Assembly (NCBI RefSeq): GCF_030384885.1
Contig: NZ_CP128613.1
DNA from: Escherichia coli
GTDB lineage: Bacteria; Pseudomonadota; Gammaproteobacteria; Enterobacterales; Enterobacteriaceae
Reading direction: 5' to 3' (one strand)
DNA length: 64,000 nt
Shown: in pieces, positions 5,688 through 43,028 of the stretch
How positions within the stretch are numbered: the stretch's first letter is position 1
How the letters are laid out: each line of letters starts with the position of its first letter
Translations under genes and position numbers: made by a program
The notes under the pieces: generated by a model
Database searches by the model: none
The model's input: the letters and a program-made list of their open reading frames with translations, nothing else
Told to the model about the DNA's origin: nothing

Positions 5688-6692
<1,005 letters not shown>

Positions 6693-8158: not shown

Positions 8159-8178
8159 GCCGCGGATGCGTCTCGAGA

Positions 8179-9064: not shown

Positions 9065-9071
9065 TGCAGTT

Positions 9072-12911: not shown

Positions 12912-12941
12912 CAACAACAACGCAAACACAACAATCGAGGA

Positions 12942-14474: not shown

Positions 14475-14484
14475 GAGAGAACGG

Positions 14485-15000: not shown

Positions 15001-15161
15001 ACCTTATACAATTTGTGCCAGCTTGTTCACACTTTTATGTAAAGTTACCCTTAACAACTTAAGGGTTTTCAAATAGATAGACATATATTTACATCTAATA
15101 TCGGAATTCTCTGCTGTTAAGGTTTGCTTAGACTTACTTGCTCCCTAAAAAGATGTTAAAA

Positions 15162-15175
15162 TTGACAAATATCAA
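15162..15175 (+). promoter_or_regulatory. FNR box in the fnr promoter (autoregulation site)
   Basis: ttgacaaatatcaa is a near-perfect TTGAT-N4-ATCAA FNR site about 20 bp upstream of the fnr start codon. Confidence 0.7.
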
Positions 15176-15194
15176 TTACGGCTTGAGCAGACCT

Positions 15195-22916: not shown

Positions 22917-24959
22917 ATGGATGATAAACAAATTACGGTCTGGCTTAAACACAATTGCTGTTCAACGGACATTCCTGCCATTGCCGAGGCACTAACGAAC
23001 CATGCAGAATGGCTTTTAGAGCTAGCGCCAGATCCTATTGAACAAGGTTGTTCATGTTTACCGCCGACAGCTGCAGCCGGTATTTTTCTTGGCGCAGCGG
23101 CGATGGTTCACTGCGGCGAGGCTAGTGGTGCAGAAACCTGGCTCGAAGCAGCCATTACTGATTACCATTTCTTTAATCCAAATGGATATAGTTCATGGAG
23201 AGGCAGTACGCCTGTTTTTACAGCATTATCGCGTTACCCGGCATTAAGAATGGTGTTATTTAACGCCGCTTGCGCAATGGAAGACTGGAATAAAGCATCC
23301 GCTGTTCTTGAATCGCTTTTCCATGCCAGCGATGTAACGGAAGATAACCCTGTCGCCCCCAATTTTACCCCTTATGCGCTGAAAGCGTTTATCGCGGATT
23401 ACCACCCGTTAGGGCCTGCTTATTATGATGAAACCTGGTTGCTGGCAAAACAAGCGTGGTTAATTAATGCGGGCGTTCTGGATGAGCGAACCTGTAATAC
23501 CTGGAAGCAATATACCCGCCATTTGCGCCATTTGATCCATAATGCACAGTTTTCCGATGCGATCTCTTTTGTACGCAGTAAAAAAGAACCATTAAATCAT
23601 ATCCATACCTACTCAGACTTTTATCTCTATGCGATTGGTTTATTTTCTTCTACTGATCAGCTAAGTGAAGCGCTAACCTGGGTAAAACAATTAATCCGCA
23701 ACAATGATGGTCATTTCCATGATCTTTTCGTTTCAACTGGCGCAAAGCGCCGAATAAAGCCTGAACTTAGTACCTTGCTGAATAATCTCTTGTACAGCGC
23801 AGAGTTTCAGGCGTTGCAGGATAAATATCTCACCGTCGGACATGATGTTGTGCATTCTGGTCCCTTCATGTCACTTTATGAAAAGGTTCTTGGCGGTAAG
23901 TCCCGAAAGCGCTGCGCGATTAGTCGAAAATTAATCTCACCCGGCGAAGCGGTTTATGAATATCGTCAGCTGGATAGTGTGGAATATATTGCAGCGAAAG
24001 CGGCCTTTCAGACATCTGAGCTAAATAATATCGCCCACCGGCATCATAATGATAGTTATCAGTGGCATGAATTTGCCGTCCAATGGCCTCGTCGGGGTTC
24101 ACTTTCTCACCCAGATATTGCCCGTTATTTGTTTGAGCGCCAGGAAGGAAAATGCTTTGATGCCGCAGAGTTTATACAACTGATTGCGGAACCGTTTGTC
24201 TTTCCGATGCGTTTCATATGGGTTGCCGGGTTGTCCTTTGAATTACATCAGTATCCGGATGCCTATTTCGTAAATGACAATATGGCGGGTGAATTTGTTA
24301 ATCTCTGCTGGATGGCTATGAAATGCGGACATGCTGGCGACATTTTCAAACAACTGGCCCACGAGCCGCATGACGTTGCTGACCCTATTTACGCCATGCT
24401 CGCCACGTTTGACCGCGCTGATTGCCGTAGCGCCGCCGCCGCGCACTTTGGACAACCGGAACTACCGGAAATAATGGCACTGGCTTTCAGTTCGAGGTTA
24501 TCGCTCGACAGCGTCCTTACCATCGCTGAGTTTGGTAAAAATCAGCCGCGATTTTCACATGCGCTAGCAACGGCCCTCCTGCGTTACAACCTGCACATCT
24601 ACTCAAACTATATGCCGCAGGTTAACTGGTACCTTCAGGGGCTGGAACACTATGCTTTGGCAAAAGGCGGTCAACTTTTAAATTTCTTTGTGCATATTCC
24701 AGAACAAATTCCCGTTCTGGCGACCATGCTGGAACATGGCGTATTAGTGCGTGGGATCGGTGAAGGTGCCTATGATGGTTATGATAATTCAGCAAATTCA
24801 TTTCATCATGCCGCCGTGATGCACTGCCTCACGCACGCGCCGGAAAAAGTCCGCTACTGGATGGAAACACCCTGGATTCAGAACTATTTAGTGAATGCGC
24901 CGCTGCGTCAAACGGCGCGCCATGTGGAAGCCTGGCATAAAAAGTTTGGCATCAAATGA
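22917..24959 (+). CDS. hypothetical protein, about 680 aa, no family recognised; probably cytoplasmic, Cys/His-rich N-terminus
   Basis: Single long ORF (table entry 22863..24959, which starts at a TTG); the ATG at 22917 has ggag 11 nt upstream. No signal peptide or TM segment by eye. Sits between convergent tpx and tyrR where recalled K-12 order has no gene. Confidence 0.6.
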   Translation: MDDKQITVWLKHNCCSTDIPAIAEALTNHAEWLLELAPDPIEQGCSCLPPTAAAGIFLGAAAMVHCGEASGAETWLEAAITDYHFFNPNGYSSWRGSTPVFTALSRYPALRMVLFNAACAMEDWNKASAVLESLFHASDVTEDNPVAPNFTPYALKAFIADYHPLGPAYYDETWLLAKQAWLINAGVLDERTCNTWKQYTRHLRHLIHNAQFSDAISFVRSKKEPLNHIHTYSDFYLYAIGLFSSTDQLSEALTWVKQLIRNNDGHFHDLFVSTGAKRRIKPELSTLLNNLLYSAEFQALQDKYLTVGHDVVHSGPFMSLYEKVLGGKSRKRCAISRKLISPGEAVYEYRQLDSVEYIAAKAAFQTSELNNIAHRHHNDSYQWHEFAVQWPRRGSLSHPDIARYLFERQEGKCFDAAEFIQLIAEPFVFPMRFIWVAGLSFELHQYPDAYFVNDNMAGEFVNLCWMAMKCGHAGDIFKQLAHEPHDVADPIYAMLATFDRADCRSAAAAHFGQPELPEIMALAFSSRLSLDSVLTIAEFGKNQPRFSHALATALLRYNLHIYSNYMPQVNWYLQGLEHYALAKGGQLLNFFVHIPEQIPVLATMLEHGVLVRGIGEGAYDGYDNSANSFHHAAVMHCLTHAPEKVRYWMETPWIQNYLVNAPLRQTARHVEAWHKKFGIK

Positions 24960-24996
24960 ACGTTGCCGCTGCGCCTGAACGGCGCAGCCAGCACAA

Positions 24997-26538
24997 TCAC
25001 TCTTCGCTTTTCTTCTGGTTTAAGCCATATTCCCGCAACTTATTGGCAATCGCGGTATGCGAAACGCCGAGACGTTTTGCCAGTTTGCGCGTGCTGGGAT
25101 AATTGCGATAAAGCTGAGTTAATACCGAGCGTTCAAAACGGCTGGTGATTTCGTCCAGCGAACCTTCCATCGCATCTTCGCCCACGGCTACCGTTGCGGC
25201 GTCATAATCCGGTAACAAAATATCCTGTGGACGTAGCTCATAACCGTCCAGTTGTGTCAGTGCGCGATAAATAGCGTTCTTTAACTGCCGCACATTTCCC
25301 GGCCACGCATAACGCGTAAGTACAGTATTCAGGTCAGCGGCCAGTTTCGGACGCGGCACGCCCTGCTCGTCGGCAAAGCGGGCGACGAACAGCTCGGTTA
25401 ACGGCATGATGTCCTGCGGACAGTCACGTAGCGGCGGCAGATTGAGCGTCAACACGTTCAGACGATAATAGAGATCTTCACGGAAAACGCCTTTTTGCAC
25501 CAGTTCGACTAAATTCTTCTGCGTAGCGCAAATAACCCTTACATCGACATGCACTTCATGATCTTCACCAACTCGACGGAAAGTACCATCATTAAGGAAA
25601 CGCAGTAATTTCGCCTGCATCCTTGGCGACATCTCGCCTATCTCATCTAACAGCACCGAACCACCGTTCGCCTGCTCAAAGAACCCTTTTTTACCTTCCG
25701 GAGCATGACCAAACAGTTCACTCTCGACCGCATCTTCCGGTATAGACGCGCAGTTCAGCGCCAGGTAAGGTTTGCCCGCTCGTGGGCTTGCCTGATGGCA
25801 GGCGTAGGCAAAGAGATCTTTACCTGTACCGGTGTCACCCGTAATCAGCAACGGCGCGCTTAGCATCGCCAGTTTCTGCGCCTGTTCGACAACATGCTTC
25901 ATTTTCGGGCTGACGGCGACAATTTGACTGAAGGCACTGACGTCCTGTGCAGCGACATTCTGCAACTGACGGCCCATACGAATCGTCGAGCGCAACATCA
26001 CCACCGCACCGGTCAGAACGTGTTGATCATTTTCATCCTGAAGATAAACAGGCGTAATCTCCATCAGGAAATTCTGCCCATTAATAACGACATGCTCGTT
26101 ATGCGAGTCTTGCGGTTCGCTTTCCAGCCAGCGTAAAAAATTAAAGCCGTTAATTAATTGCGCGGCGGTATGGTTGCGCAGGCGATCCAATTTTTGCCCA
26201 AAAAGCTGACAGCTCGCCGGGTTCGCCATATCCACTTTGCTTTTCATATCAACAGAAAGCACAGGCTCAGGCAACGCCTCCAGTAACGCGCTCAACGCCA
26301 GATGCTCACGTTCGGAAGGCATCCACGGAACAGTGCGCACATCGGTAACACCTGCAATACGGCGTATTTCGGCCATCAGACTGCTGAAACTTTCAAATTC
26401 CAGTTCGGCAAAATTGAGGTAGATTCGCCCAATGGGGTCAATCTCAATACCGCGTAAATCAATGCCTCTTAGCACGAGTAGATCGAGTAATTCGCGGGTC
26501 AGACCGAGTCGGTCTTCACAAAAGACTTCCAGACGCAT
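24997..26538 (-). CDS. tyrR: transcriptional regulator TyrR (sigma54-type AAA+ enhancer-binding family)
   Basis: 513 aa from the ATG at 26538 (MRLEVFCEDRLGLTREL); central AAA+ domain (GDTGTGKD, GAFTGA-like) and C-terminal HTH. Confidence 0.93.
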   Translation of the reverse strand: MRLEVFCEDRLGLTRELLDLLVLRGIDLRGIEIDPIGRIYLNFAELEFESFSSLMAEIRRIAGVTDVRTVPWMPSEREHLALSALLEALPEPVLSVDMKSKVDMANPASCQLFGQKLDRLRNHTAAQLINGFNFLRWLESEPQDSHNEHVVINGQNFLMEITPVYLQDENDQHVLTGAVVMLRSTIRMGRQLQNVAAQDVSAFSQIVAVSPKMKHVVEQAQKLAMLSAPLLITGDTGTGKDLFAYACHQASPRAGKPYLALNCASIPEDAVESELFGHAPEGKKGFFEQANGGSVLLDEIGEMSPRMQAKLLRFLNDGTFRRVGEDHEVHVDVRVICATQKNLVELVQKGVFREDLYYRLNVLTLNLPPLRDCPQDIMPLTELFVARFADEQGVPRPKLAADLNTVLTRYAWPGNVRQLKNAIYRALTQLDGYELRPQDILLPDYDAATVAVGEDAMEGSLDEITSRFERSVLTQLYRNYPSTRKLAKRLGVSHTAIANKLREYGLNQKKSEE

Positions 26539-26608
26539 GGGAACCTTCACCTGAAAAAAGAACAATTAATATGATGATATGACACTATTTGGATAGCAGG
26601 AAGGTTTC

Positions 26609-26626
26609 TGTCAACAATCATTGACA
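26609..26626 (-). promoter_or_regulatory. TyrR box (TGTAAA-N6-TTTACA-like palindrome) in the tyrR promoter
   Basis: tgtcaacaatcattgaca is an 18-bp palindrome matching the TyrR box pattern, upstream of the tyrR start. Confidence 0.55.
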
Positions 26627-26685
26627 CAAAGACGGAAAAACGGGCACTTCGGCGTAAAGATATCCGGTCAGCACCCGATATTGCA

Positions 26686-27747
26686 TTATTTTTCGCTGGG
26701 CGTTTTGCCTTTTTGCAGCGTCTCTTTCACCTGACCGATAAGCTGACGACGGAAATCCCCGAGGCGAGGTTTGTCATCGTCAATCCACGGCAGCGGGCGG
26801 CAAAGCTCCATAGCTTTAATCCCCAGTCGTGCCGTCAGAAGTCCAGCACCAATCCCCTGAGCTGCCCGGGTAGACAAACGCGCAGCGAGATCTTGCGACA
26901 TCCAGTCCATCCCCACTTCGCGCACCAGTTCGCTGGCTCCGGCGAAAGCGATATTCAGCAATACCAGCTTAAACAGGCGCAAACGGCTGTAATATCCCAG
27001 TTCAATGCCATACAGCGTGGCGATGCGATTGATCAAACGCAGATTGCGCCAGGCGATAAATGCCATATCCACCAGCGCCAGCGGGCTAACGGCGATCATT
27101 AACGTTGATTCCGCCGCTGAGCGACTGATTTCGCGCCGCGCCTGGGCATCTAAAACCGGCTGGACCAGATGAGCATACAGGCTGACCACTTCACGATCGT
27201 TCTGCGTTTCATGGATTGAGGCATACCAGCGTTGCAGTGCCGGATGCGACTGGTCGATGCCCGCCTGCTGCGCCAGTTTTTCGCAGAATGCACGGCCTTT
27301 ACCCGTGCCGTGACTGTGCAACAAATCGCGCGCTTCGTCGCGTTCATGGGCGCGCTGTCGCAAGCGCCATAAACGCCGCCACTCTGTTACCACAGAACCT
27401 ACGCCAGCGCCGATAATCAATGCCCCAGCGGCACATCCACCCAGCGCTACCCAATCCTGAGTTTGCCAGGCATTCATCGTCCACTGCACGCCCTGCCCGA
27501 CAACGCTTGCACCAAACAGAGCCAACCCGCCCATCACCATTTTGCGCCACAGGCTGCGTTTCGGACGTAACGCTGCGTCCATCACCGCTTCAACTTGCCC
27601 CTCTTCTTCCTGCGCTTCGTCGAGCGTGGCCGGGGCAAAATTTTGCGCCTGATTTTCGTCAAAGGTCTGCTGCGCCCTGAATTTTGGATTCTGATCGACC
27701 TCCAGTGGACCGTCGAAATCAATACGTGGTTTTAACGGTTCGGTCAT
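26686..27747 (-). CDS. ycjF: UPF0283 inner-membrane protein YcjF
   Basis: 353 aa with predicted TM helices; start overlaps the ycjX stop by 4 bp (operon). Confidence 0.85.
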
Positions 27748-29141
27748 CGCAATTTATCTCCTATTAAAAATTCCAGCGCAGCATCAAGACGAATATGCGG
27801 CAGCGGTTTGTCGACATCCATCACCTGCGGACGAAACGCCTCAAACTGGAAGCCTTGCTTATCCCAGAACGCCTGACCAGGCAAACGTGCGGGAACTTCG
27901 CCAGGATAAACAGTGAGCGGTGCGCCATCGCTGAGTCGATTACCGCGCAGCGCCGGGATTTTCTCACCGTTAACATCAATAATGCCGCTGGTGGTCGCCT
28001 GAACTGACGCCAGCCCCAGGCAGTCCATGCTGATCCCTTCGAACGCCGCATTTTGCCAAGCATCCTGAATCAGTTGTTGCAGTAATGAAACCATATTGGC
28101 GTGCTGATCGATGGTCACATGGTCTGCTTTAGTGGCAGCAAACAATAGCTTATCGATAACCGGCGAAAACAAACGCCGGAACAGGGTTCGCTGCCCGTAG
28201 TGGAAACTTTGCATCAGCTGCGTCAGCGCCAGACGCATATCATTAAATGCCTGTGGCCCACTGTTGAGCGGTTGCAGGCAATCCACCAGCACAATCTGCC
28301 GATCAAAGCGCAGAAAATGATTTTTATAGAACCCCTTCACCACTTTCTCGCAGTAATAATTAAATCGTTCGCGCAGCATTCCGGCATTGGTGTGCTTGTC
28401 GGCCTGTGCAAGTTTTGATTCGCCCCAGGCATCGACATCTGGCCACGGGAAGAATTGCAGCGCGGGCGCACCTGCCATATCGCCCGGCAAGACAAAACGT
28501 CCAGGCTGAATAAAGTGCAGCCCCTGCTGTTTGCAGTGGTGGAGATAATCGGTCCATGCGGCCGCAATGTCTGCAAGACGGTTTTCGTCGGCAGGTGCTA
28601 GTGGGTCCAGCCCTTCGCACATCATTCGCCATTTTGCCGACCATTCGCCGCGCTGACCATTGAGTAAGCCCGTCATCTGGCGCGACCAGCTTAAATAGTC
28701 CTGCGCCAACATCGGCAAGTCGAGTAACCATTCGCCGGGATAATCCACTATCTCCAGATACAACGTGGAAGTGTCTTTGAAGTGACGCAACAGCGAATCG
28801 TTCGATTTATAGCGTAGCGCCAGGCGAATCTCACTGACGCCGCGTGTTGGGGTCGGCCAGGCGGGAGGATCGCCATATAACTGCGCCAGCCCTTCATCGT
28901 AGGTGAAGCGCGGAATGCCAAAGTCACGCTGGGGAATGCGTTTTACGCCCAGCAGGCGCTCTTCACGCACCGCACTTAATAGCGGCAAGCGTGCTCCGGC
29001 ATGAATATTGAGCAACTGATTGACCATCGCAGTGATAAACGCGGTTTTGCCGCTGCGGCTAAGTCCGGTTACAGCGAGGCGCAGATGTCTGTCGACACCC
29101 CGATTCACCAGCGCATTAAGTTCATTTTTAAGTCGCTTCAT
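27744..29141 (-). CDS. ycjX: P-loop NTPase YcjX (DUF463)
   Basis: 465 aa; Walker [11 protein letters not shown] near the N-terminus. Confidence 0.85.
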
Positions 29142-29284
29142 TGCTGTCCTGTGGACCAGAAAAAATCATTCGTAAGGATATGAATGTGGGGGCCATGCCC
29201 TTGATTATCAACTGCCCGTGTTGTCATCTTGAGGGGAACTCCATAAGATGTGCAGCATTCACGTTCGGACGGAGTTCCTGACCT

Positions 29285-30283
29285 ATGTCCCCTACTATTT
29301 ATGATATTGCCAGGGTTGCCGGCGTATCAAAGTCCACCGTATCACGCGTGCTGAATAAGCAAACCAATATCTCCCCGGAAGCGCGCGAAAAAGTGTTACG
29401 GGCCATTGAAGAATTACAGTATCAGCCAAATAAACTGGCCCGCGCGCTGACCTCTTCGGGCTTTGATGCCATTATGGTGATTTCTACCCGTTCGACCAAA
29501 ACTACGGCGGGTAACCCGTTTTTCTCCGAAGTTTTGCATGCCATTACCGCCAAAGCGGAAGATGAGGGTTTCGACGTGATATTGCAGACGTCGCACAACC
29601 CGGCTGAAGACTTACAAAAATGTGAAAGCAAAATTAAGCAGAAAATGATTAAAGGCATTATTATGCTAAGTTCGCCAGCAGATGAGTCTTTTTTCGCCCA
29701 ACTCGATAAATACGATATTCCGGTGGTAGTAATTGGCAAAGTTGAAGGTGAATATGCCCATGTTTATTCTGTCGATACCGATAATTTTGGCGACAGTATT
29801 GCGCTGACCGATGCATTAATTGAAAGTGGACATAAAAATATTGCCTGCCTACATGCTCCGCTTGATGTCCATGTTTCGGTTGACCGCGTTAATGGTTATA
29901 AGCAAAGTCTGGAAGATCATAATATTGCAGTGCGCAATCAGTGGATCGTTGACGGCGGTTATACCCATGAGACAGCACTGCAAGCCGCGCGGGAATTATT
30001 AAGCCAGTCACCGTTGCCTGAGGCAGTGTTTGCTACTGACAGCCTGAAATTAATGAGCATTTATCGTGCGGCGGCAGAGAAAAACATTGCTATTCCGCAG
30101 CAGTTAGCGGTGGTGGGTTATAGTAATGAAACGCTGTCGTTTATATTAACGCCTGCACCGGGCGGCATCGATGTTCCGACGCAGGAGTTAGGTCAACAAA
30201 GCTGCGAGTTATTATTCCGCTTAATTGCCGGAAAACCGTCACCACAAAATATTACCGTTGCCACGCATATGTCGTTGAAATAA
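29285..30283 (+). CDS. ycjW: LacI-family transcriptional regulator YcjW
   Basis: 332 aa; N-terminal HTH ([21 protein letters not shown]) and periplasmic-binding-protein-like domain. Confidence 0.9.
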
Positions 30284-30299
30284 ATGCCAGCTACGTTGC

Positions 30300-30385
30300 C
30301 TGAATGCCGGATGCGATGCTGGCGCATCTTATCCGGCCTACATTTATAAACCGGATAAAGTACTCGCGCCGCATCCGGCAATTTA
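30300..30385. repeat. REP elements between ycjW and ompG
   Basis: gccggatgcgatgctggcgcatcttatccggcctac and ccggataaagtactcgcgccgcatccggc. Confidence 0.8.
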
Positions 30386-30393
30386 GCACATTA

Positions 30394-31299
30394 TCAGAAC
30401 GCGTAATTCACACCGACACCTGCATAATGGAATTTATCGCTATCGCCTTCGTCGTGATCCTGCCACTCAAACGCATATTCCAGCGAAACGGAAAGACCAT
30501 TCTGGAAATCATAACCGTAAAACAAACCAAGACGGTTAAAATCATGGCCTTCACGTTCGATATCATCCTGCCAGTCCCAGTTACTCCAGCGATCCAACCC
30601 AATGCGCGTATACGGCGTCACCGAGTGATTGCCGAGCGTCAACGGTAAATAGGCGCGAATTTCTTGCGTGGAGAATTCACCGTTATTGCGGCTGTCGTCC
30701 ATATTGAAGCCGCGCTCGAGATAATAGTTCACCCGCAAGGCAACCGTTTCGTTGAAAGTATATTGCAGACCCGTTTCCGTTTCGACACGGGTATCAGCAT
30801 AACCGGTCGTGTTCAGATCGTTGGCAAATTTATACATCGACAGCCAACCGTTGAAACGTAAATCGTCAGTCAGTTTCACGTCCCAGTCTGGCGCGATTTT
30901 CCAGCGCTGCATATTTGCCGTGTCTTTACCCGGTTCATCAACATAGTGATAACCATAGTTACGGAAACCACCGGTCAGGCCGAAACTGAAATCATCGCTT
31001 TCGAGAAACTGATAATGCACTTCCAGTTCCGGGCGATCAAACCAGGTTCCACGTTTACCCGCGCTATAATCTACTGGCCCTTCCTGGTAATAAGCCAGCG
31101 ATATTCTCCACGGCCCGTTGGCAGCATTAAAATAGACGGAAGGCTCCGCCAGCCCGTCCATATCTTCGCCATAACCCTCGACGTTTTCTATTTCGTACAT
31201 CGCGCCGATATTAAAGTGCCAGTCTTTTTTTTCCTCAGCCTGTGCGCAGGCCATTCCCGCACACATCACCAGTGCGGTACAGGGTAATAACTTTTTCAT
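30394..31299 (-). CDS. ompG: outer membrane porin OmpG
   Basis: 301 aa; signal peptide then beta-barrel ending in an aromatic residue (YAF). Confidence 0.92.
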   Translation of the reverse strand: MKKLLPCTALVMCAGMACAQAEEKKDWHFNIGAMYEIENVEGYGEDMDGLAEPSVYFNAANGPWRISLAYYQEGPVDYSAGKRGTWFDRPELEVHYQFLESDDFSFGLTGGFRNYGYHYVDEPGKDTANMQRWKIAPDWDVKLTDDLRFNGWLSMYKFANDLNTTGYADTRVETETGLQYTFNETVALRVNYYLERGFNMDDSRNNGEFSTQEIRAYLPLTLGNHSVTPYTRIGLDRWSNWDWQDDIEREGHDFNRLGLFYGYDFQNGLSVSLEYAFEWQDHDEGDSDKFHYAGVGVNYAF

Positions 31300-31343
31300 T
31301 ATTGTTCCTTGTATTATCCTGGGGGAATGCCTTCCCCCTGTAT

Positions 31344-32426
31344 TTAGCGAATTGCTATTTCCGTTTCTGCATCAAAGAAATGACATTTGGTCATATCGAA
31401 ATGAATAGTGACGTTTTCTCCTGCATGATAATCATTTAACGCACCGGCACGGACCACCAGCTCGTGCCCCCCAACCGTGGTGTAGAGCATAAATTCCGCA
31501 CCGGTTAATTCCGCCACGCTAATTTTGGCGGAAATGTTATTTTCCTCTTGCGCATCCGGATGAATATCTTCCGGGCGTATTCCCATCACAATGGGTTTAT
31601 GCAAACTTTCCTGCGTTTTCAGAACCGCTAATTTATCTTCGGGAATGGTTAATTTAAGCGTTTCCGTAACGAATTTATCGCCATCGATCGTGCCGCGAAT
31701 AAAATTCATTGCTGGTGACCCAATAAATCCGGCAACAAACATATTCGCCGGTTGGTTATAGACCGTTTTCGGCGCACCGACCTGCTGAACAATCCCATCC
31801 TTCATAATGACAATCCGCGTCGCCATGGTCATCGCTTCGGTCTGATCGTGGGTCACGTAGATCATGGTGGTGTTCAGTTTCTGATGCAGCTTGCTGATTT
31901 CCGCTCGCATTTGTACGCGCAGCTTGGCATCCAGGTTAGAGAGCGGTTCATCCATTAAAAACACGCCCGCTTCGCGCACAATCGCCCGTCCGAGCGCCAC
32001 ACGCTGGCGTTGCCCGCCGGAAAGCGCGCCCGGCTTGCGTTTCAGGTACTCACGCAGGCCGAGGATTTGCGCCGCCCAGTTAACCCGCTCATCAATCACC
32101 TCTTTGGCGATTTTTTGCATCTTCAGGCCAAACGCCATGTTGTCGTAGACCGTCATATGCGGATACAGCGCGTAGTTCTGGAAAACCATCGCGATATTGC
32201 GCGCTTTGGCCGGAACGTCGTTCATTCGTTTGCCGTCGATCAACAGATCGCCGCCGCTGATCTCCTCAAGCCCGGCAATCATACGCAGCGTCGTCGATTT
32301 ACCGCAGCCCGACGGACCGACAAACACGATGAACTCTTTATCGGCAATCTCCAGGTTGAAGTCCTTCACCACATGCACCTGGTTATCGTAGATCTTTTGA
32401 ATATGTTGTAACGAAAGCTGTGCCAT
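31344..32426 (-). CDS. ycjV: ABC transporter ATP-binding protein (MalK-like), apparently intact
   Basis: 360 aa; Walker A GPSGCGKST, signature LSGGQRQR, Walker B FLMDEP. Confidence 0.88.
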   Translation of the reverse strand: MAQLSLQHIQKIYDNQVHVVKDFNLEIADKEFIVFVGPSGCGKSTTLRMIAGLEEISGGDLLIDGKRMNDVPAKARNIAMVFQNYALYPHMTVYDNMAFGLKMQKIAKEVIDERVNWAAQILGLREYLKRKPGALSGGQRQRVALGRAIVREAGVFLMDEPLSNLDAKLRVQMRAEISKLHQKLNTTMIYVTHDQTEAMTMATRIVIMKDGIVQQVGAPKTVYNQPANMFVAGFIGSPAMNFIRGTIDGDKFVTETLKLTIPEDKLAVLKTQESLHKPIVMGIRPEDIHPDAQEENNISAKISVAELTGAEFMLYTTVGGHELVVRAGALNDYHAGENVTIHFDMTKCHFFDAETEIAIR

Positions 32427-32439
32427 GTTGATTCCTTTG

Positions 32440-33099
32440 CTATACGTTTTGCCAGAAGGCCGATAACCGCGGCCAGGTCAGGGACTCCGTTGAGGGCAAC
32501 AGTAATTGCGCCCCAGTTAAGCCCGCGCCGATCCCCACCGAACGCATACCGCTGGCGTTAATGGCGTCAATGCCCGCCTGCGCATCTTCAATGCCGATAC
32601 ATGCCTGCGGCGGCACGCCCAGCCCGGCACAGGCGGCGAGAAAGATTTCCGGGTCCGGTTTCGAGTGTTTAAGTTGGGAAGCGTCCGCGCAGAAGGTGAA
32701 AAACTCGCGCAGCTCCAGCGCCGCTAAAATTGTTGGGGCATTCAGAGAGACGGAGGCCAGCCCTACCGGGATGCCTTGCGCCCGAAGATCTGCCAGCAAA
32801 GGCCGAATTCCCGGCAGAACAGCGTTAACCGTCAGTTCGCGCAGTGAGTGGACGTAGAGCAGATTTTTGCGATACGCCAGTTGCGCCCGCTCTTGCACGT
32901 TAAAGTCGCCCTCTTTGCCCCCGTGTTGCAGAATGCGCCGCAGGGACTCATCGCGGCTGATCCCTTTTAACGTCTCGTTAAATTGCGCATCGATGCTGAT
33001 GCCGATTTCGGCGGCAATCTGCTGCCATGCCTGGAAGTGCAGATGTGCGGTGTCGGTGATCACGCCATCCAGATCGAAAATTACCCCTTGTAGTTTCAT
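32440..33099 (-). CDS. pgmB: beta-phosphoglucomutase (HAD superfamily)
   Basis: 219 aa; HAD motif [10 protein letters not shown]. Confidence 0.9.
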
Positions 33100-35363
33100 T
33101 CATCCTCCTGATGTTTGGTAGCGGTCCCATTGAAGGGCAAAATAAAATCACCCAAACAGAAAACAGATTCTTCAGTCACGGAAATAAGCTGACCGTTCAA
33201 CCGCATTGAAACGGGCGCAGAAGTTCGAATCGCAATACGCTGCGCGTCGAGAGTGACCTGTAATTCGCAGCCCTGCCAGAACAAAGGGAAAGATAACTGT
33301 TGCCACTGCTCAGGTAACGCTGGGTTCAGATGTAATTCGCCGTCGCGCACGCTGACTCCGGCAAAACCCTGAATCGCCCCCAGCCAGATAGCGCCAGTTG
33401 CGGCGGCATGGATACCGTCATCGCAGCTATGCGGATCAGCACCAAGATCGATTTCACTCCCCTCGCGCCAGAACGGGTAACTCTGCGCAAGCAAGCCACA
33501 ACGCGCGGCAACAATGCCGTGGATCGCTTTACTCAATGACGAGTCGTGAATGGTGCGCGGTTCATAAAATTGCAGATTGGCGAGACACGAGGCCGCTGAA
33601 AATTGTTCCGGTAGCATGTAATTGAGCATCACCACATCGGCCTGCTTGAGGATCTGCATCTCGTTCACTTCTGCGCGTGAATAATCCAGCAGAATGGTTT
33701 GTTTACCTGCCGCCGCTTTGTATTTCGCCAGATCTATCGCCGGTTTCGCCATAAACGAATCATCCTGCGGCAAAACGCCGTCGGGCTGAATTTCTGGCAT
33801 CCACAGCTCTTTGAGGAACATGTCGGCACGATGAATAAACGCATCGTCGCTACAGCCAAACTGGCGAGCAATATTCAGTGCCTGTTGGACGTTGTAGCAG
33901 GCCATATAACTTGTGTATGCGTTATTGTTAACGTGTTCGGTATATTCGTCTGGCCCAATAACATCATGAATTTCCAGACGATCGTTAACCCTTACCGCGC
34001 GGCTAATCCAGAACTTTGCGGTCTCCAGCAGTAGCGCCATGCCTTCGTGAGCAATGAAGCTTTCATCCCCCGTTACCTGCCAGTATTGAATAACCGCCCA
34101 GGCGATATCGGCAACCAGATGATGTTCTGCCTGCGCTGAGGCCACTTTTTGCCGCAGCCCAGTACGAATGTTAATGGCGGCAAATTCCGGCGTTTCTTCT
34201 TCGCCGCTACGTGCGCTCTCCCACGGAAACAGCGCGCCCTGCCAGCCATTGCGTCGCGCTTTCTCCTGCGCGCCAGGCAAGTTGTGCCAGCGATAGCGCA
34301 GTAAACTTCGGGCAATCGTCGGTTCGCTAAACAGATGGAACGGCAGCAGAAACACTTCCGTATCCCAGAAAACGTGGCCTTTGTAGCCTTCGCCGGTTAA
34401 GCCTTTCGCCGCAATGCTGCTACGCTCGTCATGGGCGGGCGTCATAATACGCAAATGATAAAGCGCATAGTCTAACGCCCGCTGAGCGTGCGCATCGCAA
34501 CTGTTTACCGTGATACGACGTTTCTGCCACCATTGCAGCCAGTTTTCTGTGGATGCTGCAAGAAGTTGGTCATAACTCTGCTGCGCGCACATTTCGAGCT
34601 GGCGAAGCGACGCACTGCCCCACTCGTCTAAAGCAGCTTGTCGGTCGTCCCGCCAGTCAATCCACACCCGCTTTTGCAAGGTCAGTGTTTCACCTGTGCG
34701 AAGTTGCGCGCTGGTATGTTGCAGCAAACGGCGCTCTTTTGCGGTATAGCACTGCTGAACGTCACCATCCGCCTGACAGTGACAACTGATTGCCACATCA
34801 CTGCGCCCATCCTGGGTGGTATAGATCCCCTGCATCAAATGCTGACCAAACACCCGCACCTGGGTTTCGTCGAGATGCTGGCGACCGTGGTTGGTTTGCG
34901 TGGCATCAATGCCTGTTGAGATCAGCACTGATGCCTCGGCATCCAGCGGGGTAATACTGATTTCCAGCGCGATCAGCGGCAGTTGATCTGTCGAAACAAA
35001 ACGACGGCTTTCAATGGTGAACCCTGCGCCGTCGCTGGTGCGCCAGATAACACTGCGGCGTAATTCTCCACTGGCAAAGTCAAGCTCACGCTGCCACGCT
35101 TCGCGCGATAACGAAAAAATCTCGCCGTTTAGGGTAATTTCCATTCCCACCACGTCTGGCAGATTCACCAGTTCGTTGATTTCTCCTTTACCCGCTCGAT
35201 GATACAGCCCTGCCAGATACATGCCGCGCGTCTGCCGCGTGTAATCTTCTTCATGGCTGGCACGAAGCCCAAGATAGCCGTTCCCCTGCGCCATTAATGA
35301 GGCATATTTATTCAGGGTATGCTGGCTGAAATGGGGTTCCGTTAATGTTACTGGCCTGGTCAT
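33096..35363 (-). CDS. ycjT: kojibiose phosphorylase (GH65)
   Basis: 755 aa GH65-type protein; start overlaps the ycjS stop. Confidence 0.88.
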
Positions 35364-36415
35364 AATTCCACACGCGTCCCTGTTTCTGCGGATTGATACA
35401 GCGCCGCCACCAGTTGCTGGATGATGTACCCTTGCTCGGCGTCGGCAATCATCACTGGCTTGCCCTGTACGTGATTGATAAAGGCTTCCATGCTGCGCAA
35501 ATGACGGTTGTCGTCGGCCAGTTCCCGTTGCATCAGCGTCATTAATTCACCGTTGTTATCGGTATAGATATGCGCCGGAAACAGCGTGGCTCCCGCTTTA
35601 TCACCGCAAAAGCTGACGTTCATAATCGACTGTTCGCGGATGTTGAGTGCAAATGATGTCTCGAGCCAAAGAATGCCGCCGTTATGAAATTCAATGGTGC
35701 CAAACAGCGAATCTTCGACGCTGTAGGCTGCCGGGTCCCACTCGCCAAATTGACCACAGCTCTTTTGCGGGCCGATCTTTTGAAAGCTGTGCGCATTCAC
35801 GCTTTTCACCGCCGGAAAGCCCAGCACATACATCGCGGCATCCAGCATATGAATGCCAATATCGATCAGCGGGCCGCCGCCCTGCAGTTCTTTATTGGTA
35901 AAGACACCCCAACCGGGAACACCGCAGCGACGCAGGGCGCGGGCGGTCGTGACGTAAATCTCACCCAAAACGCCGTTGGTCACCTGTTCACGCAGTTGTT
36001 GCGTATCAAGGGCAAAACGATGGTGAAAGTCGTAGGCCAGCACCTTGCCCTGTTTACGCGCGGTATCACACATCTCCCGCGCCTGTTCCGGCGTCATGGC
36101 GGGCGGTTTCTCGCACATCACATGGCAGCCTGCCTCCAGCGCCATCAGGGTATGCTCGTAATGAAAACGGTTAGGTGAACAGACGCTTACCACGTCAGGT
36201 TTTACCGCCAGCAGCATGGCCTGCGGATCGTCCCACACGGATGCATTCCCGTATTTCTCTGCCAACGCCTGCGCCTGGGAAAGGCGGCTGTCACAGACAG
36301 CCACCAGTTCCAGATCGTTGCGGGTGCAGTAGTACGAAGCATGAACCTTATCCGCCACCTGGCCCGCGCCTATTATCGCGACCCGCAGCGGAGAGCTTGT
36401 CATTGCACTTTTCAC
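35360..36415 (-). CDS. ycjS: Gfo/Idh/MocA-family NAD-dependent oxidoreductase (glucoside 3-dehydrogenase)
   Basis: 351 aa; Rossmann motif IIGAGQVA at the N-terminus. Confidence 0.88.
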   Translation of the reverse strand: MKSAMTSSPLRVAIIGAGQVADKVHASYYCTRNDLELVAVCDSRLSQAQALAEKYGNASVWDDPQAMLLAVKPDVVSVCSPNRFHYEHTLMALEAGCHVMCEKPPAMTPEQAREMCDTARKQGKVLAYDFHHRFALDTQQLREQVTNGVLGEIYVTTARALRRCGVPGWGVFTNKELQGGGPLIDIGIHMLDAAMYVLGFPAVKSVNAHSFQKIGPQKSCGQFGEWDPAAYSVEDSLFGTIEFHNGGILWLETSFALNIREQSIMNVSFCGDKAGATLFPAHIYTDNNGELMTLMQRELADDNRHLRSMEAFINHVQGKPVMIADAEQGYIIQQLVAALYQSAETGTRVEL

Positions 36416-36424
36416 AAAGACCTC

Positions 36425-37213
36425 TTAGCAGGTGCGCAACCAGGCCAAAGAATCACGGTACGCCTGAGCAGGATCTTCTGCCCGAATGCGCCCTTCATAC
36501 ACCACATAGCCCTGATAGTTATCGGCGCGCAGCTGTTCAAACAGCGCGTGGAAATCGAGGGTGCCGCTGCCCGGCTGGTAGCGATGGTTATCCGCAATAT
36601 GCACATGACCGAGCAGGTCGCGGTTGTCATGCAGCGCCTGCGCCAGGTTATCTTCTTCGATATTCATGTGATAGAAATCGCCGATAATCTGCACATGTTT
36701 AAGATCGTTTTCGACGATGTAACGGCGGGCATCGGCGAGGGTGTTGATCATGTGATCCTGATAACGGTTTAACGGTTCGAGATACACCACCGTTCCGGTA
36801 CGTGCGGCCACCTTTTCCAGGAAACGAAGGGAATCGCTCACCATTTGACGATCGCCGTCCAGGCTGCGCGGCGAGGTCATCGGCGGTAAGCGAAAGGTAA
36901 ACATGCCCCACGCTGCCGGAACGACAATACCTTTGCCGCCCACTTCCGCCAGCGCCTCAAGAATGCGCTCGATCTGCTTTAAACCATTAAGACGACGCTC
37001 TTCGATAAAGTCGCCAATCCAGCCGTCATAGCCGCCGCAGGCGGTGGTCACCGGTAAACCGGTTTCTTTGATCGCTGCTTTGACTTCTTCGATATTGTTG
37101 ACCAGCAGTTTGCCGTCAATTTCAAAACCATCAAATCCCATCTCTTTGATATAACGAAATTTCTCCAGAATATTTTCCGGAAAGAACGCCTGATTCTGTG
37201 TGCCGATTTTCAT
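36425..37213 (-). CDS. ycjR: sugar phosphate isomerase/epimerase family protein (3-keto-glucoside epimerase)
   Basis: 262 aa xylose isomerase-like TIM barrel. Confidence 0.85.
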   Translation of the reverse strand: MKIGTQNQAFFPENILEKFRYIKEMGFDGFEIDGKLLVNNIEEVKAAIKETGLPVTTACGGYDGWIGDFIEERRLNGLKQIERILEALAEVGGKGIVVPAAWGMFTFRLPPMTSPRSLDGDRQMVSDSLRFLEKVAARTGTVVYLEPLNRYQDHMINTLADARRYIVENDLKHVQIIGDFYHMNIEEDNLAQALHDNRDLLGHVHIADNHRYQPGSGTLDFHALFEQLRADNYQGYVVYEGRIRAEDPAQAYRDSLAWLRTC

Positions 37214-37229
37214 TTTTCCGTCCTTAGAA

Positions 37230-38282
37230 TTAAAAAGTTACGCCCATTTTGATGCTCTGTTCCGGATGCTGGTCGACATACTGCATGTAGCTTTCCGGGC
37301 TGTTAGCAAAGGTCACCACCGGGTCGATTAAATCTTCACAATTGAGATAACCGTTCATCAGCAGTTCCCAGCAGGTTTCTTCAATACGCTTGCGACTCCA
37401 GCGCGGATAATCCGGGTTCGGTTCACTGCACGCACGAGAGAAGACAATTTTGGCGTTGTTGAAATGCGCTTCACGTCCGAGGTTGAAACCTTCGGCAAAT
37501 GGTTTGGCAAATGCGACATACGAGATGGTGCCGCCATAAGCCAGGCCGCGCAGTGCCGATTGCAGCGCGTCGGCGTAGCCGCTGGTTTCGATAATCACAT
37601 CGGCACCCTGCTTGCCGGTCAGCGTTTTAATCTCTTTGCCTACATCTGTGCCAATGGGGTTAAGGCAGAAATCCGCCCCGTGGCGACGGGCAATATCACA
37701 GCGATGAGCGATAGGATCGACACCAATCACCACCGACGCGCCAGCGCGTTTTGCCAGTTGAATGGCAATTTGACCAATCGCGCCAAGCCCTACCACCACC
37801 ACAAAATCGCCCACGCGCACGTTGGCATCGCGCACGCCGCTCATGGCAAACTGCGCCGGGTCGTAACAGACGGCGTTTTTCCACGAGCTACCTTGCGGCA
37901 TCTTGCGCAGTTTGTAGTTATTCACCGCGTTAATGATGACCGTTTCGGAAAGCGGGCCGTAGCCGCATACGCTGTCACCCACCGCGTAGTCGGTAACGTC
38001 GCTGCCGCACTCGATAATGTCGCCAACCACCATGTTGCCAAGCTGGAACTTGCCAAACTCAATGCCGCGCGGCGCATCTGCCGGACGGGGGGTGAACATC
38101 TGCCATTCGCCATTAAAGTCTTCATCGATAAACGGGCTGGCGGCGCGGAAATCGACCACTTCCGTCCCGTGCTTCGGCGCGCCGAACCGCACGCGGATCT
38201 TCACTTCATTGGCTGAAATCGCCCTGTCTTCATACTCCACCAACGCGGCAACGCGCGGTGCTGTGGCTACTAACTTTTTCAT
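37230..38282 (-). CDS. ycjQ: zinc-binding alcohol dehydrogenase family protein
   Basis: 350 aa; MDR fold with GLGAIG Rossmann motif. Confidence 0.85.
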   Translation of the reverse strand: MKKLVATAPRVAALVEYEDRAISANEVKIRVRFGAPKHGTEVVDFRAASPFIDEDFNGEWQMFTPRPADAPRGIEFGKFQLGNMVVGDIIECGSDVTDYAVGDSVCGYGPLSETVIINAVNNYKLRKMPQGSSWKNAVCYDPAQFAMSGVRDANVRVGDFVVVVGLGAIGQIAIQLAKRAGASVVIGVDPIAHRCDIARRHGADFCLNPIGTDVGKEIKTLTGKQGADVIIETSGYADALQSALRGLAYGGTISYVAFAKPFAEGFNLGREAHFNNAKIVFSRACSEPNPDYPRWSRKRIEETCWELLMNGYLNCEDLIDPVVTFANSPESYMQYVDQHPEQSIKMGVTF

Positions 38283-38312
38283 GTAAAACTCCTTGTCAAG
38301 AAACTGGCCGCT

Positions 38313-39155
38313 TTAGCCCTTCACGCCACCGGCGGTCAAACCACTCTTAATAAAACGTTCCGAAAGTGCATACATAATCACCACCGGCAATGCGGTCACC
38401 AGCGAGGCCGCCATCATTCGGCCCCAGATGTAATCAGGGGTACTGAACAGCGCGTTCAGGCCTACCGGTAAAGTGAAATTGCTGGCGCTGGAGAGGAAAA
38501 TCGAGGCAAACAGATAGTCGTTCCACGCCACCATAAAGCAGTAGACGAACACGGATATCAGCCCGGACATCGCCAGCGGTACCGTGATGCGGAAGATGAT
38601 TTGCAGCCGGTTGAGGCCATCCATCATCGCCGCTTCTTCGATTTCATCGGGGATGGTGTCGAAGTAGCTTTTCAGCATAAACACGGCGGTAGGCAGGGTT
38701 TGCGTCACCATGGTGATGATCAGCGCCATCTCGGTGTCGTAAACGCCAAGCGCGGTGATGATTTTGAACAGCGGCACCACCAGCAAAATGCCGGAGAACA
38801 TGTACACCGTGTAGAAGCTGGCGTTGATGGTCATTCGCCCTTTAAAGCGCAGGCGGGAAAGCGCGTAAGCCCCGAGAATGCCGAGAAATACTGCTATCAC
38901 GGATGAAACTACCGACACCACCATGCTGTTACGGAAATAATCGACAAACGGGAAAATCACCGGGTTAAAAATGTCGACGTAATACTCCAGCGTCCACTGC
39001 TGTGGCAGCAGCGTAGGATGCAGCGAGATCGCCTCTTTCGCGCTTTTGAACGAGGTCATCAGCATCACAAAAAACGGAAACAACGTGATGATGAGAAACA
39101 GCGCCAGCCCGCAGTAAAAACCGATGCGACTGAGTGTGCGTTTATTTGTTGCCAT
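38313..39155 (-). CDS. ycjP: ABC transporter permease (MalG-like)
   Basis: 280 aa polytopic membrane protein; part of the ycjM-V cluster. Confidence 0.88.
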   Translation of the reverse strand: MATNKRTLSRIGFYCGLALFLIITLFPFFVMLMTSFKSAKEAISLHPTLLPQQWTLEYYVDIFNPVIFPFVDYFRNSMVVSVVSSVIAVFLGILGAYALSRLRFKGRMTINASFYTVYMFSGILLVVPLFKIITALGVYDTEMALIITMVTQTLPTAVFMLKSYFDTIPDEIEEAAMMDGLNRLQIIFRITVPLAMSGLISVFVYCFMVAWNDYLFASIFLSSASNFTLPVGLNALFSTPDYIWGRMMAASLVTALPVVIMYALSERFIKSGLTAGGVKG

Positions 39156-40022
39156 TGAGGTTCACCCGTTTTCTGGTCAGCAGAATGACAGCGAAAATAA
39201 TGATGAAGAGCACCACCGAGATCGCCGCCGCTTTCCCTAAGTCATTAAAGGCAAAGGCGGTTTTGTAGAGATAGACGCCGAGAATATCGACCTTGGTCGT
39301 CAGCAAATAAACGTCAGCGAACATGTAGAACATCCAGATGGTACGCAGAGTCACCACCGTCGCCAGGACCGGCATAATCGCGGGCAGCGTGACGATGCGA
39401 AACCGTTGCCAGGCATTCGCGCCGTCCATCTCTGCCGCTTCGTACAACGATTTATCAATGGTCTGCAAAATCGCCAGAAACGAGATAAAGGCATACGGGA
39501 GTAGCGCCAGATGGCGAACAGCACCACCAGCACAAAACTACTGCCCGGGTTATCGAACCACAGCGGCGCCTGCTCATAGAGATGCAGAAGATCGACGCCG
39601 AGGTAGTTCACAATGCCGTAGCCGTTGTTGAACATGTATTTCCAGGCGAACACCAGCGAAATGGATGGCGTTACGTAGGAGAGGATCACCAACGAACGCG
39701 CGGTTTTGCGCAGGCGAAACTCGCGGTTGAAAAACATCGCCACCGCCAGCCCGAGCACGGTGCTACCTGCCACCACCAGCGCGGTATACCAGACCGTCAT
39801 CCACAGCGAGTGCCAGAAGCCGGGATCGGAGAGAATACGCACATAGTTGCTCACCCCAACAAACGTTGACTCGATGTTGGGATTGAGCGGCAGACGTAAA
39901 AAACTGATTTCGATATTCGACACCATTGGCCACGCCACCAGACCGCCCAGCAGTAATAAGCTGGGCGCGAGAAGCAGCAGCGCAAAGGGCATATCGGAAC
40001 GACCTGAAAAAAGCCTGTTCAT
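39142..40022 (-). pseudogene. ycjO: ABC transporter permease YcjO, interrupted by a -1 frameshift near 39510
   Basis: Two overlapping ORFs (39351..40022, N-terminal part; 39142..39468, C-terminal part) each carry a recognisable part of one MalF-like permease; the reading frame breaks after ...FAIWRY. Confidence 0.75.
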
Positions 40023-40042
40023 TGCGGATTCCTGTCCTGGGA

Positions 40043-41335
40043 TTAGTGCTGTTCGATCAGTTCATCCAGCTTTTTCTGGCTCGCTTGCAGCGTGGTTGAG
40101 AGATCGGCTTTCCCCACGGTGACGTTATGCACCATTGAACTCACCACACCAGACCCCGTGACATCGCCCATGCGGGTAAAGTTTTTGTCCCCTACCGCAC
40201 CAAAGACCTGAATGTTTGGCAGTTCGCTAATCAACTGATTCGGCAAGTCTCCCAGCGCCTTAATCACGTCGTTATCTTTCCAGGTGGCAGTCGTCACAAC
40301 CGCTTTGTTAACCGGCAGCGCCGCGCCTGGCGACATCATCACCCAGTCGGCAATGTTGTCCGCCTGCTCCATAAAGGTGACAAATTTTTCTGCCGCTTCC
40401 GTCTCTTCGCTCTTTTGCCCGGCGGTAATGGTCAGCGAGGTCAACATGCCGTAGACCGCCGAGTTTTTCTCGGTTGGCACCACGAAACCGACATTTTTCG
40501 GGTCACCTTCTTTAATCACAGCCGGAAGGATATAGGTGGAGTAAATCGCCATCGGCGCGGTGCCGTTCATAAAGGCGTCTTTCACTTCCATAATGTCGTT
40601 AGAACCCGGCATGGTGTTGGCAGCAAGGTCGCGGTAATAGGTCAGCGCCTGCATCATCTCCGGCGTATCAAGGGTGATTTTGCCTTCGGCGTTAAAAACG
40701 TTGGCCTGATTGGATAACGCAAACTGGGAGAACGATTGTTCCGTCAGTACGCTTTCTGCCGTCGGAAGAGCAATACCGTATTTTTTATTCGCCGGATCGT
40801 TCAGTTTCTGTGCGACATCCAGCAACTGTTGCCAGTTTTTCGGCTCATCCAGCCCGGCTTTTGCCAGCACATCTTTGCGATACCAGATACCGCCAATCCA
40901 TGCGCTGACAGGAACACCAGTCCAGGCGCTACCATCTTCGGTGCGCACAATCCGTAGAACGCCGTCATAAAACGCGCCTTCACCGACATTACTGATGACC
41001 GTAGCAACCGCTTTGCGATCGATAAGCTGTTCTTTGTCCATCACTTTCGCGTAGTCATGGCTGGTTTCGATCACTTCCGGCAGCGAGCCGCTACGGGAAA
41101 GGGTGATGACTTTGGTGTTATAGGCATCTTCTTCCACCGGCACCTGTTTAACAGTGATGCCTGGGTTTTCTTTTTCAAAACGCGCAATTAACTGACTAAT
41201 TACCGCCTGGCGTTCCTGTTCCACCGAAGAATGCATAAACTCGATGGAGACATTCGTTTTATTTTCTTCTTTACAGCCTGAAATCAGGGCGCAGGAAACC
41301 AGTGCTGATAACAGCACGATTTTTGATTTAATCAT
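40043..41335 (-). CDS. ycjN: ABC transporter periplasmic sugar-binding protein
   Basis: 430 aa; lipoprotein-like signal (LSALVSCALISGC) and family 1 solute-binding protein. Confidence 0.88.
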   Translation of the reverse strand: MIKSKIVLLSALVSCALISGCKEENKTNVSIEFMHSSVEQERQAVISQLIARFEKENPGITVKQVPVEEDAYNTKVITLSRSGSLPEVIETSHDYAKVMDKEQLIDRKAVATVISNVGEGAFYDGVLRIVRTEDGSAWTGVPVSAWIGGIWYRKDVLAKAGLDEPKNWQQLLDVAQKLNDPANKKYGIALPTAESVLTEQSFSQFALSNQANVFNAEGKITLDTPEMMQALTYYRDLAANTMPGSNDIMEVKDAFMNGTAPMAIYSTYILPAVIKEGDPKNVGFVVPTEKNSAVYGMLTSLTITAGQKSEETEAAEKFVTFMEQADNIADWVMMSPGAALPVNKAVVTTATWKDNDVIKALGDLPNQLISELPNIQVFGAVGDKNFTRMGDVTGSGVVSSMVHNVTVGKADLSTTLQASQKKLDELIEQH

Positions 41336-41348
41336 GAGATGTTCCTTT

Positions 41349-43028
41349 TTATTTAATCCACATAACCTGCCAGGGGCGCAGCGTTATTTCATTACCCACT
41401 ATATCAACTTCACTAATCAGATCCCGACCGTGCAGGTCAGTAATATTTATATGCTGAATATTTTCACCGACATTAAACAATCCTGTCAGACAATTACCAT
41501 CCGCGTTGCTTCTTTGAATACGCATTACGGATGAATTAACCGTATCGATGGTAAAATCATTATCTGGATGAAACTCGTTATGACTGCGACGAATTTTAAT
41601 TAGTCGCGACAATTCATGATATACCGCGTGCCTTAACGTCGCTTTATTGTTCAGTTCGGTCGTGATCTCTTCGCTGGTGTATTTTTTACGGTTAATCGCA
41701 CGGTTATATCCCAGTTTTTCGACACCTGCGTAATCATTACGCGAGCCCAGAATACTTTGAATATATATCGCTGGCACACCGGGGAAAATTAACAAAATCG
41801 CATGGGCAAGGATAAACCGGGCACAGCGTTCTTCGTCACTGCAATCGCGATGGCTCAATGCGTCCATGTAGGTCACATTCATTTCATACGGACTGCGCGT
41901 ACCATCGGGATTATTTTTCCAGTTTACTAATGCCCCTTCCTGCTGTAACGCCTCGACTAGCGCTAATATCTCGCTTTCAGGCAACAAGCCTCGCAGTGGG
42001 TTAAGTCCAATACCATCATGAGACGCGAGGAAGTTAAACCAGGTGGTTTTGCTGGAAGGCAACGTCAGACTTTGCGCCCACTGGCACAGCGCCTCGACGT
42101 TCTGTTTTTGCACCGCATGTAACACCAGCGGCGGCAGTGAGAACTGGTACACCATATGCGCTTCGTCATCGCCGTTGCCAAAGTAAGCAATGTTGTCTTT
42201 ATGCGGGACATTGGTCTCAGTAATGATGACTGTCCCCGGCGCGACGCTATCAGTAATGGCGCGTAACAGTTTGATAATTTGATGTGTTTTATCCAGGTGG
42301 ATGCAACTCGTTCCCGGCTCTTTCCACATAAAGCCAACGGCATCCAGACGGACATACTCTGCGCCTTTTTCCAGGTAACACAACAGCACATCTACCATCG
42401 CCAGTAATACATCTGGGCTGCGATAATTGAGGTCAATTTGATCGTCGCTAAAGGTGGTCCATAAATGGCGCGTTGAATGATCGCGCATCTGGAATGGCGT
42501 TAATAACGGTAACGCACGCGGGCGAGTGACGGCGCTGAGATCGGTTTGCGGGTCAACGGCAATAAAAAAATCTTCAAAACCTGGCTGCTGTTGTAAATAG
42601 TTTTTAAACCATTCACTTTTTGCCGACATATGGTTGCAGACAAAATCAAACATTAAATGACTGCATTCACCGAGTTGCTGAATATCCTGCCACTCCCCCG
42701 CTTCACTGGCGACCTGATGATAATCAATTACCGAAAAGCCATCATCAGATGACCATGGATAAAACGGCAACAAATGAACATGTGAAAAAATGCTTTGCAG
42801 CCAGTGATGGTAAAACTGATTAAATGTGGGTAGTGGTTTTAAATCATTACTGTGAAATTGATCGGCATAGGTAATTAACACGACATCACTTTCATCCCAG
42901 TGTTTTTTACGTCGCTGTGTAATTAATCTTTTCGCACTCTCAAGACGCGTTACAAGTTTCTGTAAATGAGTCGCGGTAAATGTTCCACCGTAGATTTCGT
43001 CCAGGTAATCCGTAATTTTCTGTTTCAT
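41349..43028 (-). CDS. ycjM: glucosylglycerate phosphorylase (GH13 sucrose phosphorylase-like)
   Basis: 559 aa from the ATG at 43028 (MKQKITDYLDEIYGG); GH13 catalytic regions. Confidence 0.88.
   Translation of the reverse strand: MKQKITDYLDEIYGGTFTATHLQKLVTRLESAKRLITQRRKKHWDESDVVLITYADQFHSNDLKPLPTFNQFYHHWLQSIFSHVHLLPFYPWSSDDGFSVIDYHQVASEAGEWQDIQQLGECSHLMFDFVCNHMSAKSEWFKNYLQQQPGFEDFFIAVDPQTDLSAVTRPRALPLLTPFQMRDHSTRHLWTTFSDDQIDLNYRSPDVLLAMVDVLLCYLEKGAEYVRLDAVGFMWKEPGTSCIHLDKTHQIIKLLRAITDSVAPGTVIITETNVPHKDNIAYFGNGDDEAHMVYQFSLPPLVLHAVQKQNVEALCQWAQSLTLPSSKTTWFNFLASHDGIGLNPLRGLLPESEILALVEALQQEGALVNWKNNPDGTRSPYEMNVTYMDALSHRDCSDEERCARFILAHAILLIFPGVPAIYIQSILGSRNDYAGVEKLGYNRAINRKKYTSEEITTELNNKATLRHAVYHELSRLIKIRRSHNEFHPDNDFTIDTVNSSVMRIQRSNADGNCLTGLFNVGENIQHINITDLHGRDLISEVDIVGNEITLRPWQVMWIK

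Follow-up and report, generated by a model that had tools for sequence, protein, structure and literature searches.

The question raised by this locus is whether ycjO, a permease gene of the ycjM-V sugar cluster of Escherichia coli, has truly been inactivated in the 64,000-nucleotide stretch of contig NZ_CP128613.1 analysed here (hereafter the window), or whether it only appears to be broken. The evidence assembled below makes it very probable that ycjO is here a frameshift pseudogene which arose through a genuine, recent and lineage-specific one-base deletion, with the importer inactive, and that the event represents ordinary decay of a dispensable accessory locus.

A single missing base in ycjO

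On the minus strand at 39142-40022 a one-base deletion splits ycjO into a 223-codon 5' ORF and an out-of-frame 3' remnant (Table 1). The original prediction had described the two parts of one permease as overlapping ORFs in different frames, and exactly these two, 39351..40022 and 39142..39468, are present in the ORF list, overlapping each other in different frames. The latter, on the minus strand with a TTG start at 39468, encodes 108 aa with the C-terminal end LLTRKRVNLNGNK (...RKRVNLNGNK). The prediction of one missing base likewise held, as the window copy aligns with three annotated E. coli ycjO copies of 882 nt with one 1-nt gap. Against the intact ycjO of 2020CK-00188 and SMS-3-5 the reference reads CGCTACTTCCCG and the window CGCTAC-TCCCG, and the same single gap is seen against ycjO of K-12 and 2013C-4282. 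Alignment to the orthologs identifies the lost base as a T from a TT doublet at ycjO nt 523/524 in codon Phe175 (window 39500/39501), window 39500 being the T left over from the doublet. The lesion is thus TT to T and, as had been noted from the letters alone, the site is no long homopolymer. The sequence initially named for the frame break, gcatacgggagtagcg (plus strand, 39491-39506), does hold the site, whereas the coordinates assigned to it, 39505-39515, were approximately 5-10 nt too high.

Re-insertion of one T restores the ortholog: the resulting protein of 293 aa shows 100% identity with YcjO of K-12 (NP_415827.1 / WP_001080790.1) and also with the SMS-3-5 and 2013C-4282 proteins. The proposed comparison with ycjO of other strains gave the same picture, a continuous ORF in the orthologs and a single gap in the window copy; a continuous 882-nt gene for 293 aa is annotated in 2020CK-00188, SMS-3-5, 2013C-4282 and K-12. 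A megablast search with the ycjO region (39100-40060) found it in 4992 of 5426 complete RefSeq E. coli genomes, always under the annotation ycjO and between ycjN and ycjP, with at least 80% of the query covered in 4968, while the 961-nt probe was without a match in 434 of the 5426 (~8%). Across this region the references hold 962 nt, compared to 961 nt in the window, in all matches listed.

Table 1. Features of the ycjO region and of the surrounding gene cluster (window coordinates).
Feature	Coordinates	Strand	Remarks
ycjO pseudogene, whole former coding region	39142..40022	-	881 nt instead of 882; end-to-end alignment
1-nt deletion site	39500..39501	-	codon 175 TTC; wild type CTACTTCCCG, window CTACTCCCG
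ycjO 5' ORF	39351..40022	-	223 aa, starts MNRLFSGRSDMPF / MNRLFSGRSDMPFALLLLAPS; stop TGA 39351-39353
ycjO 3' remnant, original frame, residues 176-293	39142..39499	-	second half of predicted TM4, EAA loop, TM5, TM6
ycjP, second permease	38313..39155	-	intact, 280 aa
ycjN, YcjNOPV substrate-binding lipoprotein	40043..41335	-	intact, 430 aa
ycjV, ATPase of the same transporter	31344..32426	-	intact here, 360 aa
ycjM, glucosylglycerate phosphorylase; heads the ycjMNOPQRSTUV-ompG operon	41349..43028	-	intact
ycjW, LacI-type operon repressor	29285..30283	+	intact, 332 aa

The gene cluster around the lesion

The ycjMNOPQRSTUV-ompG operon is repressed by YcjW, for which a second operator is located between ycjT and ycjU (PMC6599011). 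The other eleven genes of the cluster are intact and all of full length in the window, in agreement with the original prediction. Those not listed in Table 1 encode proteins of 301 aa (ompG), 219 aa (ycjU/pgmB), 755 aa (ycjT), 351 aa (ycjS), 262 aa (ycjR) and 350 aa (ycjQ), and the ORF lengths of the cluster equal those annotated in 2013C-4282. YcjN is the substrate-binding protein of the ycjNOPV transporter, and bound none of the sugars screened (JBC 2024, PMC11543891). A passage in PMC6599011 that cites Mukherjee et al. 2018 states that K-12 does not grow in minimal medium with kojibiose as sole carbon source.

Predicted consequences for the permease and the importer

The assignment of ycjO to the MalF-type permeases is borne out by the intact ortholog, which carries the PF00528 domain (BPD_transp_1) at residues 88-280 and of which residues 8-279 (272 residues) align with SugA from the trehalose importer of mycobacteria (chain 7cad_A, E 4.6e-29) as well as with MalF. 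The mutant product consists of 174 native YcjO residues followed by a 49-residue out-of-frame tail, which is strongly basic (14 Arg/Lys, no Asp/Glu). A Kyte-Doolittle hydropathy peak at residues 171-177, taken as the predicted TM4 with the break at residue 175 inside it, is gone in the mutant together with two C-terminal peaks; the segment lines up with transmembrane helix 4 of the SugA/MalF-type permeases. Downstream of the break, and hence absent from the product, are the second half of the predicted TM4, the cytoplasmic EAA coupling loop LYEAAEMDGANAWQRFRIVTLP (at approximately residues 192-213 in the SugA/MalF alignment) and TM5-TM6. The PF00528 domain is split over two frames, with no Pfam hit on record for the 223-aa product and a hit carried by the 108-aa ORF. 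The 3' remnant is without a credible ribosome-binding site of its own.

It is known from type-I ABC importers, MalFGK2 among them, that the ATPase is docked through the EAA loop that each permease carries. As this loop and the later helices are lost, the fragment presumably cannot form a working permease. It would thus be unable to pair with YcjP and YcjV, leaving the YcjN-YcjO-YcjP-YcjV importer inactive, and the YcjNOPV importer is, as far as can be judged from the sequence, most likely dead in this lineage. The earlier expectation that an importer lacking this permease would be non-functional is in this respect well founded. YcjM, Q, R, S, T and U, the porin OmpG and the repressor YcjW would still be encoded, while the dedicated uptake route would be gone. 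Effects on the genes downstream may also be envisaged. The ycjP start (ATG) and the normal ycjO stop share an overlap of 14 nt, and the new stop lies 196 nt upstream; the translational coupling between ycjO and ycjP would therefore be lost. Conceivably, the early stop in ycjO may also lower the expression of downstream genes by polarity, although any such effect would be limited if the additional YcjW site in the ycjT-ycjU interval marks an internal promoter.

Lineage, rarity and age of the allele

The closest complete genome is that of E. coli 2013C-4282, to which positions 1-15225 of the window are 100% identical, and which is among the completely sequenced genomes of Escherichia cryptic clade I (PMC10100065). 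The ycj cluster of the window is 94.0% identical to that of K-12, in keeping with such a placement, and the host strain of the window is, by genome comparison, an E. coli strain of cryptic clade I closely related to 2013C-4282.

No exact match to a 61-nt probe centred on the deletion was found among 4980 complete RefSeq E. coli genomes, a result to be read strictly as such, since a genome with the deletion and a nearby SNP would score 98.4%, as would one with ycjO intact. The allele is hence a rare one. Within ycjO there are 10 nucleotide differences to 2013C-4282, all of which are synonymous; 2020CK-00188 shares the window haplotype in the 3' ~560 nt of the gene and has the TT intact. As all 10 differences are synonymous and the repaired protein is unchanged, the lesion must be recent. 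Purifying selection thus acted on the gene up to a single, recent event, and secondary decay is absent. The deletion is common to a small clonal lineage. No discussion of ycjO pseudogenes was found in the literature searched, where the allele is accordingly undescribed, yet it is already present in public databases.

Between positions 15000 and 64000 of the window (49 kb) only three indels distinguish it from 2013C-4282; apart from the ycjO deletion, these are located in an A-run of the ycjX-ycjW intergenic region and in a G-run of sapC. The A-run (29154-29165), situated in the divergent promoter region of ycjX and the repressor gene ycjW, reads A6 in the window, A7 in 2013C-4282 and A8 with a 10-nt insertion in K-12. 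The G-run at window 58898 is G8 with sapC intact, while 2013C-4282 has G7 and sapC annotated as a frameshifted pseudogene, a difference which could be due to a variable homopolymer or to an error in the reference.

A total of 239 mismatches separate the window from 2013C-4282, with none in 1-23539, 235 in 23540-39885 and four in 40000-64000. The tract 23540-39885, which extends over approximately 16.4 kb from upstream of tyrR to ycjO and diverges by approximately 1.4% from 2013C-4282, looks like a tract of homologous recombination. Its right edge falls inside ycjO, where the last SNP (39885) is located at a distance of approximately 385 nt from the deletion. Identity to the tract did not exceed 98.7% in any complete genome, and no donor was found among these. 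An ORF of 680 aa (22917-24959, plus strand) is located between tpx and tyrR, a position at which K-12 is not known to have a gene. It is annotated as 'hypothetical protein' in 2013C-4282 and related genomes, and gave no NCBIfam, PADLOC or significant Pfam match. A contig assembled from run SRR35948513 agrees perfectly with the window as far as ycjO nt ~810 and then ends in 30 unrelated bases (contig 3811-3840), which could represent a graph-end artefact or a junction in the sample.

Alternative readings: sequencing error, recoding and adaptive loss

In the original prediction a true mutation was held to be plausible, with an assembly error retained as the alternative. The choice is settled in favour of the former by independent assemblies and by a window otherwise clean of damaging indels. 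Single-base indels are the commonest assembly error, and an intact ycjO from which the base-caller or assembler dropped a T would be of just this type. However, the exact sequence of the 223-aa frameshift product is found in NCBI (CAD6063160.1) and also in public runs assembled by Logan. It occurs on 15 contigs or more (ten of 50-200 kb and two of >200 kb), which may partly reflect re-sequenced, very closely related isolates or one outbreak clone. Three separately assembled runs from two archives, in addition to the NCBI assembly, carry the deletion in identical flanking DNA, and align with the window through the deletion without gaps: ERR13369355 (6,672 bases, 1 mismatch), SRR35948513 (3,810 bases, 0 mismatches) and SRR34938331 (1,011 bases, 0 mismatches). 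The site is moreover a TT doublet and no homopolymer run. Since there are so few indels in 49 kb, a noisy assembly is unlikely; the ycjO deletion is the only coding indel relative to 2013C-4282 that damages a window gene, the other two damaging none. An error is thus highly improbable and, given the indel count and the independent assemblies with the exact product, effectively refuted. Nor does the frameshift appear to be bypassed by programmed -1 frameshifting, by transcriptional slippage or by the assembly of the N-terminal fragment with an internally started C-terminal one, any of which would still yield a full-length or functional YcjO. The 3' remnant remains open throughout, the two frames share 187 nt (gene nt 486-672), and split membrane proteins are sometimes able to reassemble, all of which could speak for such a rescue. 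The perfect 3' frame is, however, explained by the recent date of the lesion, and the 187-nt overlap contains neither an X XXY YYZ heptamer in any frame nor, in this frame-restoring stretch, a homopolymer of five or more. Also, no Shine-Dalgarno sequence is recognizable at the internal starts TTG 39468, ATG 39429 and ATG 39375, and the cut falls in the middle of a transmembrane helix, both of which argue against a rescue. The two-frame layout is furthermore not conserved, given the lack of an exact probe match in the 4980 complete genomes, which is the opposite of what is expected of a programmed site. Recoding was rejected on the scan for heptamers, homopolymers and internal starts and on this non-conservation, and production of a full-length or functional YcjO is considered exceedingly improbable.

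Granted that the deletion is real and the gene dead, inactivation of YcjNOPV may have been selected in some niches, so that selection rather than drift raised the deletion in the lineage; possible drivers are the avoidance of harmful glucoside uptake or the saving of membrane and ATP cost. Repeated independent lesions would be consistent with this. A look-up of the 108-aa C-terminal ORF in public E. coli/Shigella assemblies returned ten further loci with a differently broken ycjO. At least six other lesions are thereby represented: the nonsense changes W172* (five loci), Y174* and S181*, an 8-bp deletion at nt 485, an insertion of IS1 at nt ~551-558, and a double indel. To these may be added three more 223-aa products of the same 90% cluster, caused by three other 1-nt deletions slightly upstream (each on one Logan contig, and some possibly errors), as well as the ycjV lesion of K-12. 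The intact cluster enzymes of the window also fit with a selected loss of the importer. However, the look-up by the C-terminal ORF is an ascertainment that returns broken genes only, and the clustering of the lesions at codons ~170-200 arises because such a look-up can return nothing else. Neither the window allele nor W172* has an exact match among the complete RefSeq E. coli genomes, W172* probably residing in Shigella or in draft assemblies not belonging to that set, and the individual null alleles seem not to extend beyond small clones, as predicted by drift. The 100% conservation of YcjO between clade I and K-12, despite a DNA divergence of approximately 6% across the cluster, further indicates that purifying selection is the norm. 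Adaptive loss in this lineage is therefore regarded as very unlikely, and only a slight probability, if marginally higher, is given to the loss of the YcjNOPV importer being recurrently selected in Escherichia. If the latter were true, the transporter would be a burden in certain niches, and the cluster enzymes would have an intracellular role independent of the importer, for instance in the recycling of glucosylglycerate or of compatible solutes of the kojibiose type.

Significance and comparison with known systems

The preferred reading, a recent one-base deletion followed by loss of the importer, is an event of a familiar kind, the decay through a frameshift, in one lineage, of a gene for a dispensable accessory transporter, and its mechanism is not new. 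That the locus is dispensable is supported by the other ycjO lesions in public assemblies, by the ycjV pseudogene of K-12 and by the 434 complete genomes that lack a match to the ycjO probe. Some practical consequences follow. CAD6063160.1, named as an ordinary transporter protein, is actually the 5' fragment of a pseudogene. Strains of this sublineage should be avoided in substrate experiments on the ycjM-V pathway, or be used deliberately as natural nulls, and the ycjO deletion offers a clean single-site marker for typing of the clone.

Intact YcjO resembles the MalF/SugA/UgpA-type permeases (PF00528) in its domain, in its six-helix hydropathy pattern and in its EAA loop, whereas of the six helices only the first three and a half are encoded by the window allele. 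The other ycjO null alleles share with it the death of the same gene and an identical 108-aa C-terminal ORF left behind, but they are independent events in more divergent ycjO backgrounds, 95-97% identical to the reference used, and none of them is the TT to T change. A further parallel is provided by ycjV/ymjB of K-12 MG1655 (b1318/b4524), where likewise one base has been deleted and one subunit of YcjNOPV lost, with the remaining cluster intact. The run at window 31472 in ycjV is C6, compared to C5 in K-12 MG1655, which explains the pseudogene annotated there. The two cases differ in that the K-12 deletion affects the ATPase gene and a C-run, while that of the window affects a permease gene and a TT doublet; an ATPase might be replaced by a paralogue, which is much less likely for a permease. 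The cryptic-clade-I sublineage (ycjO null) and K-12 (ycjV null) thus form a natural pair.
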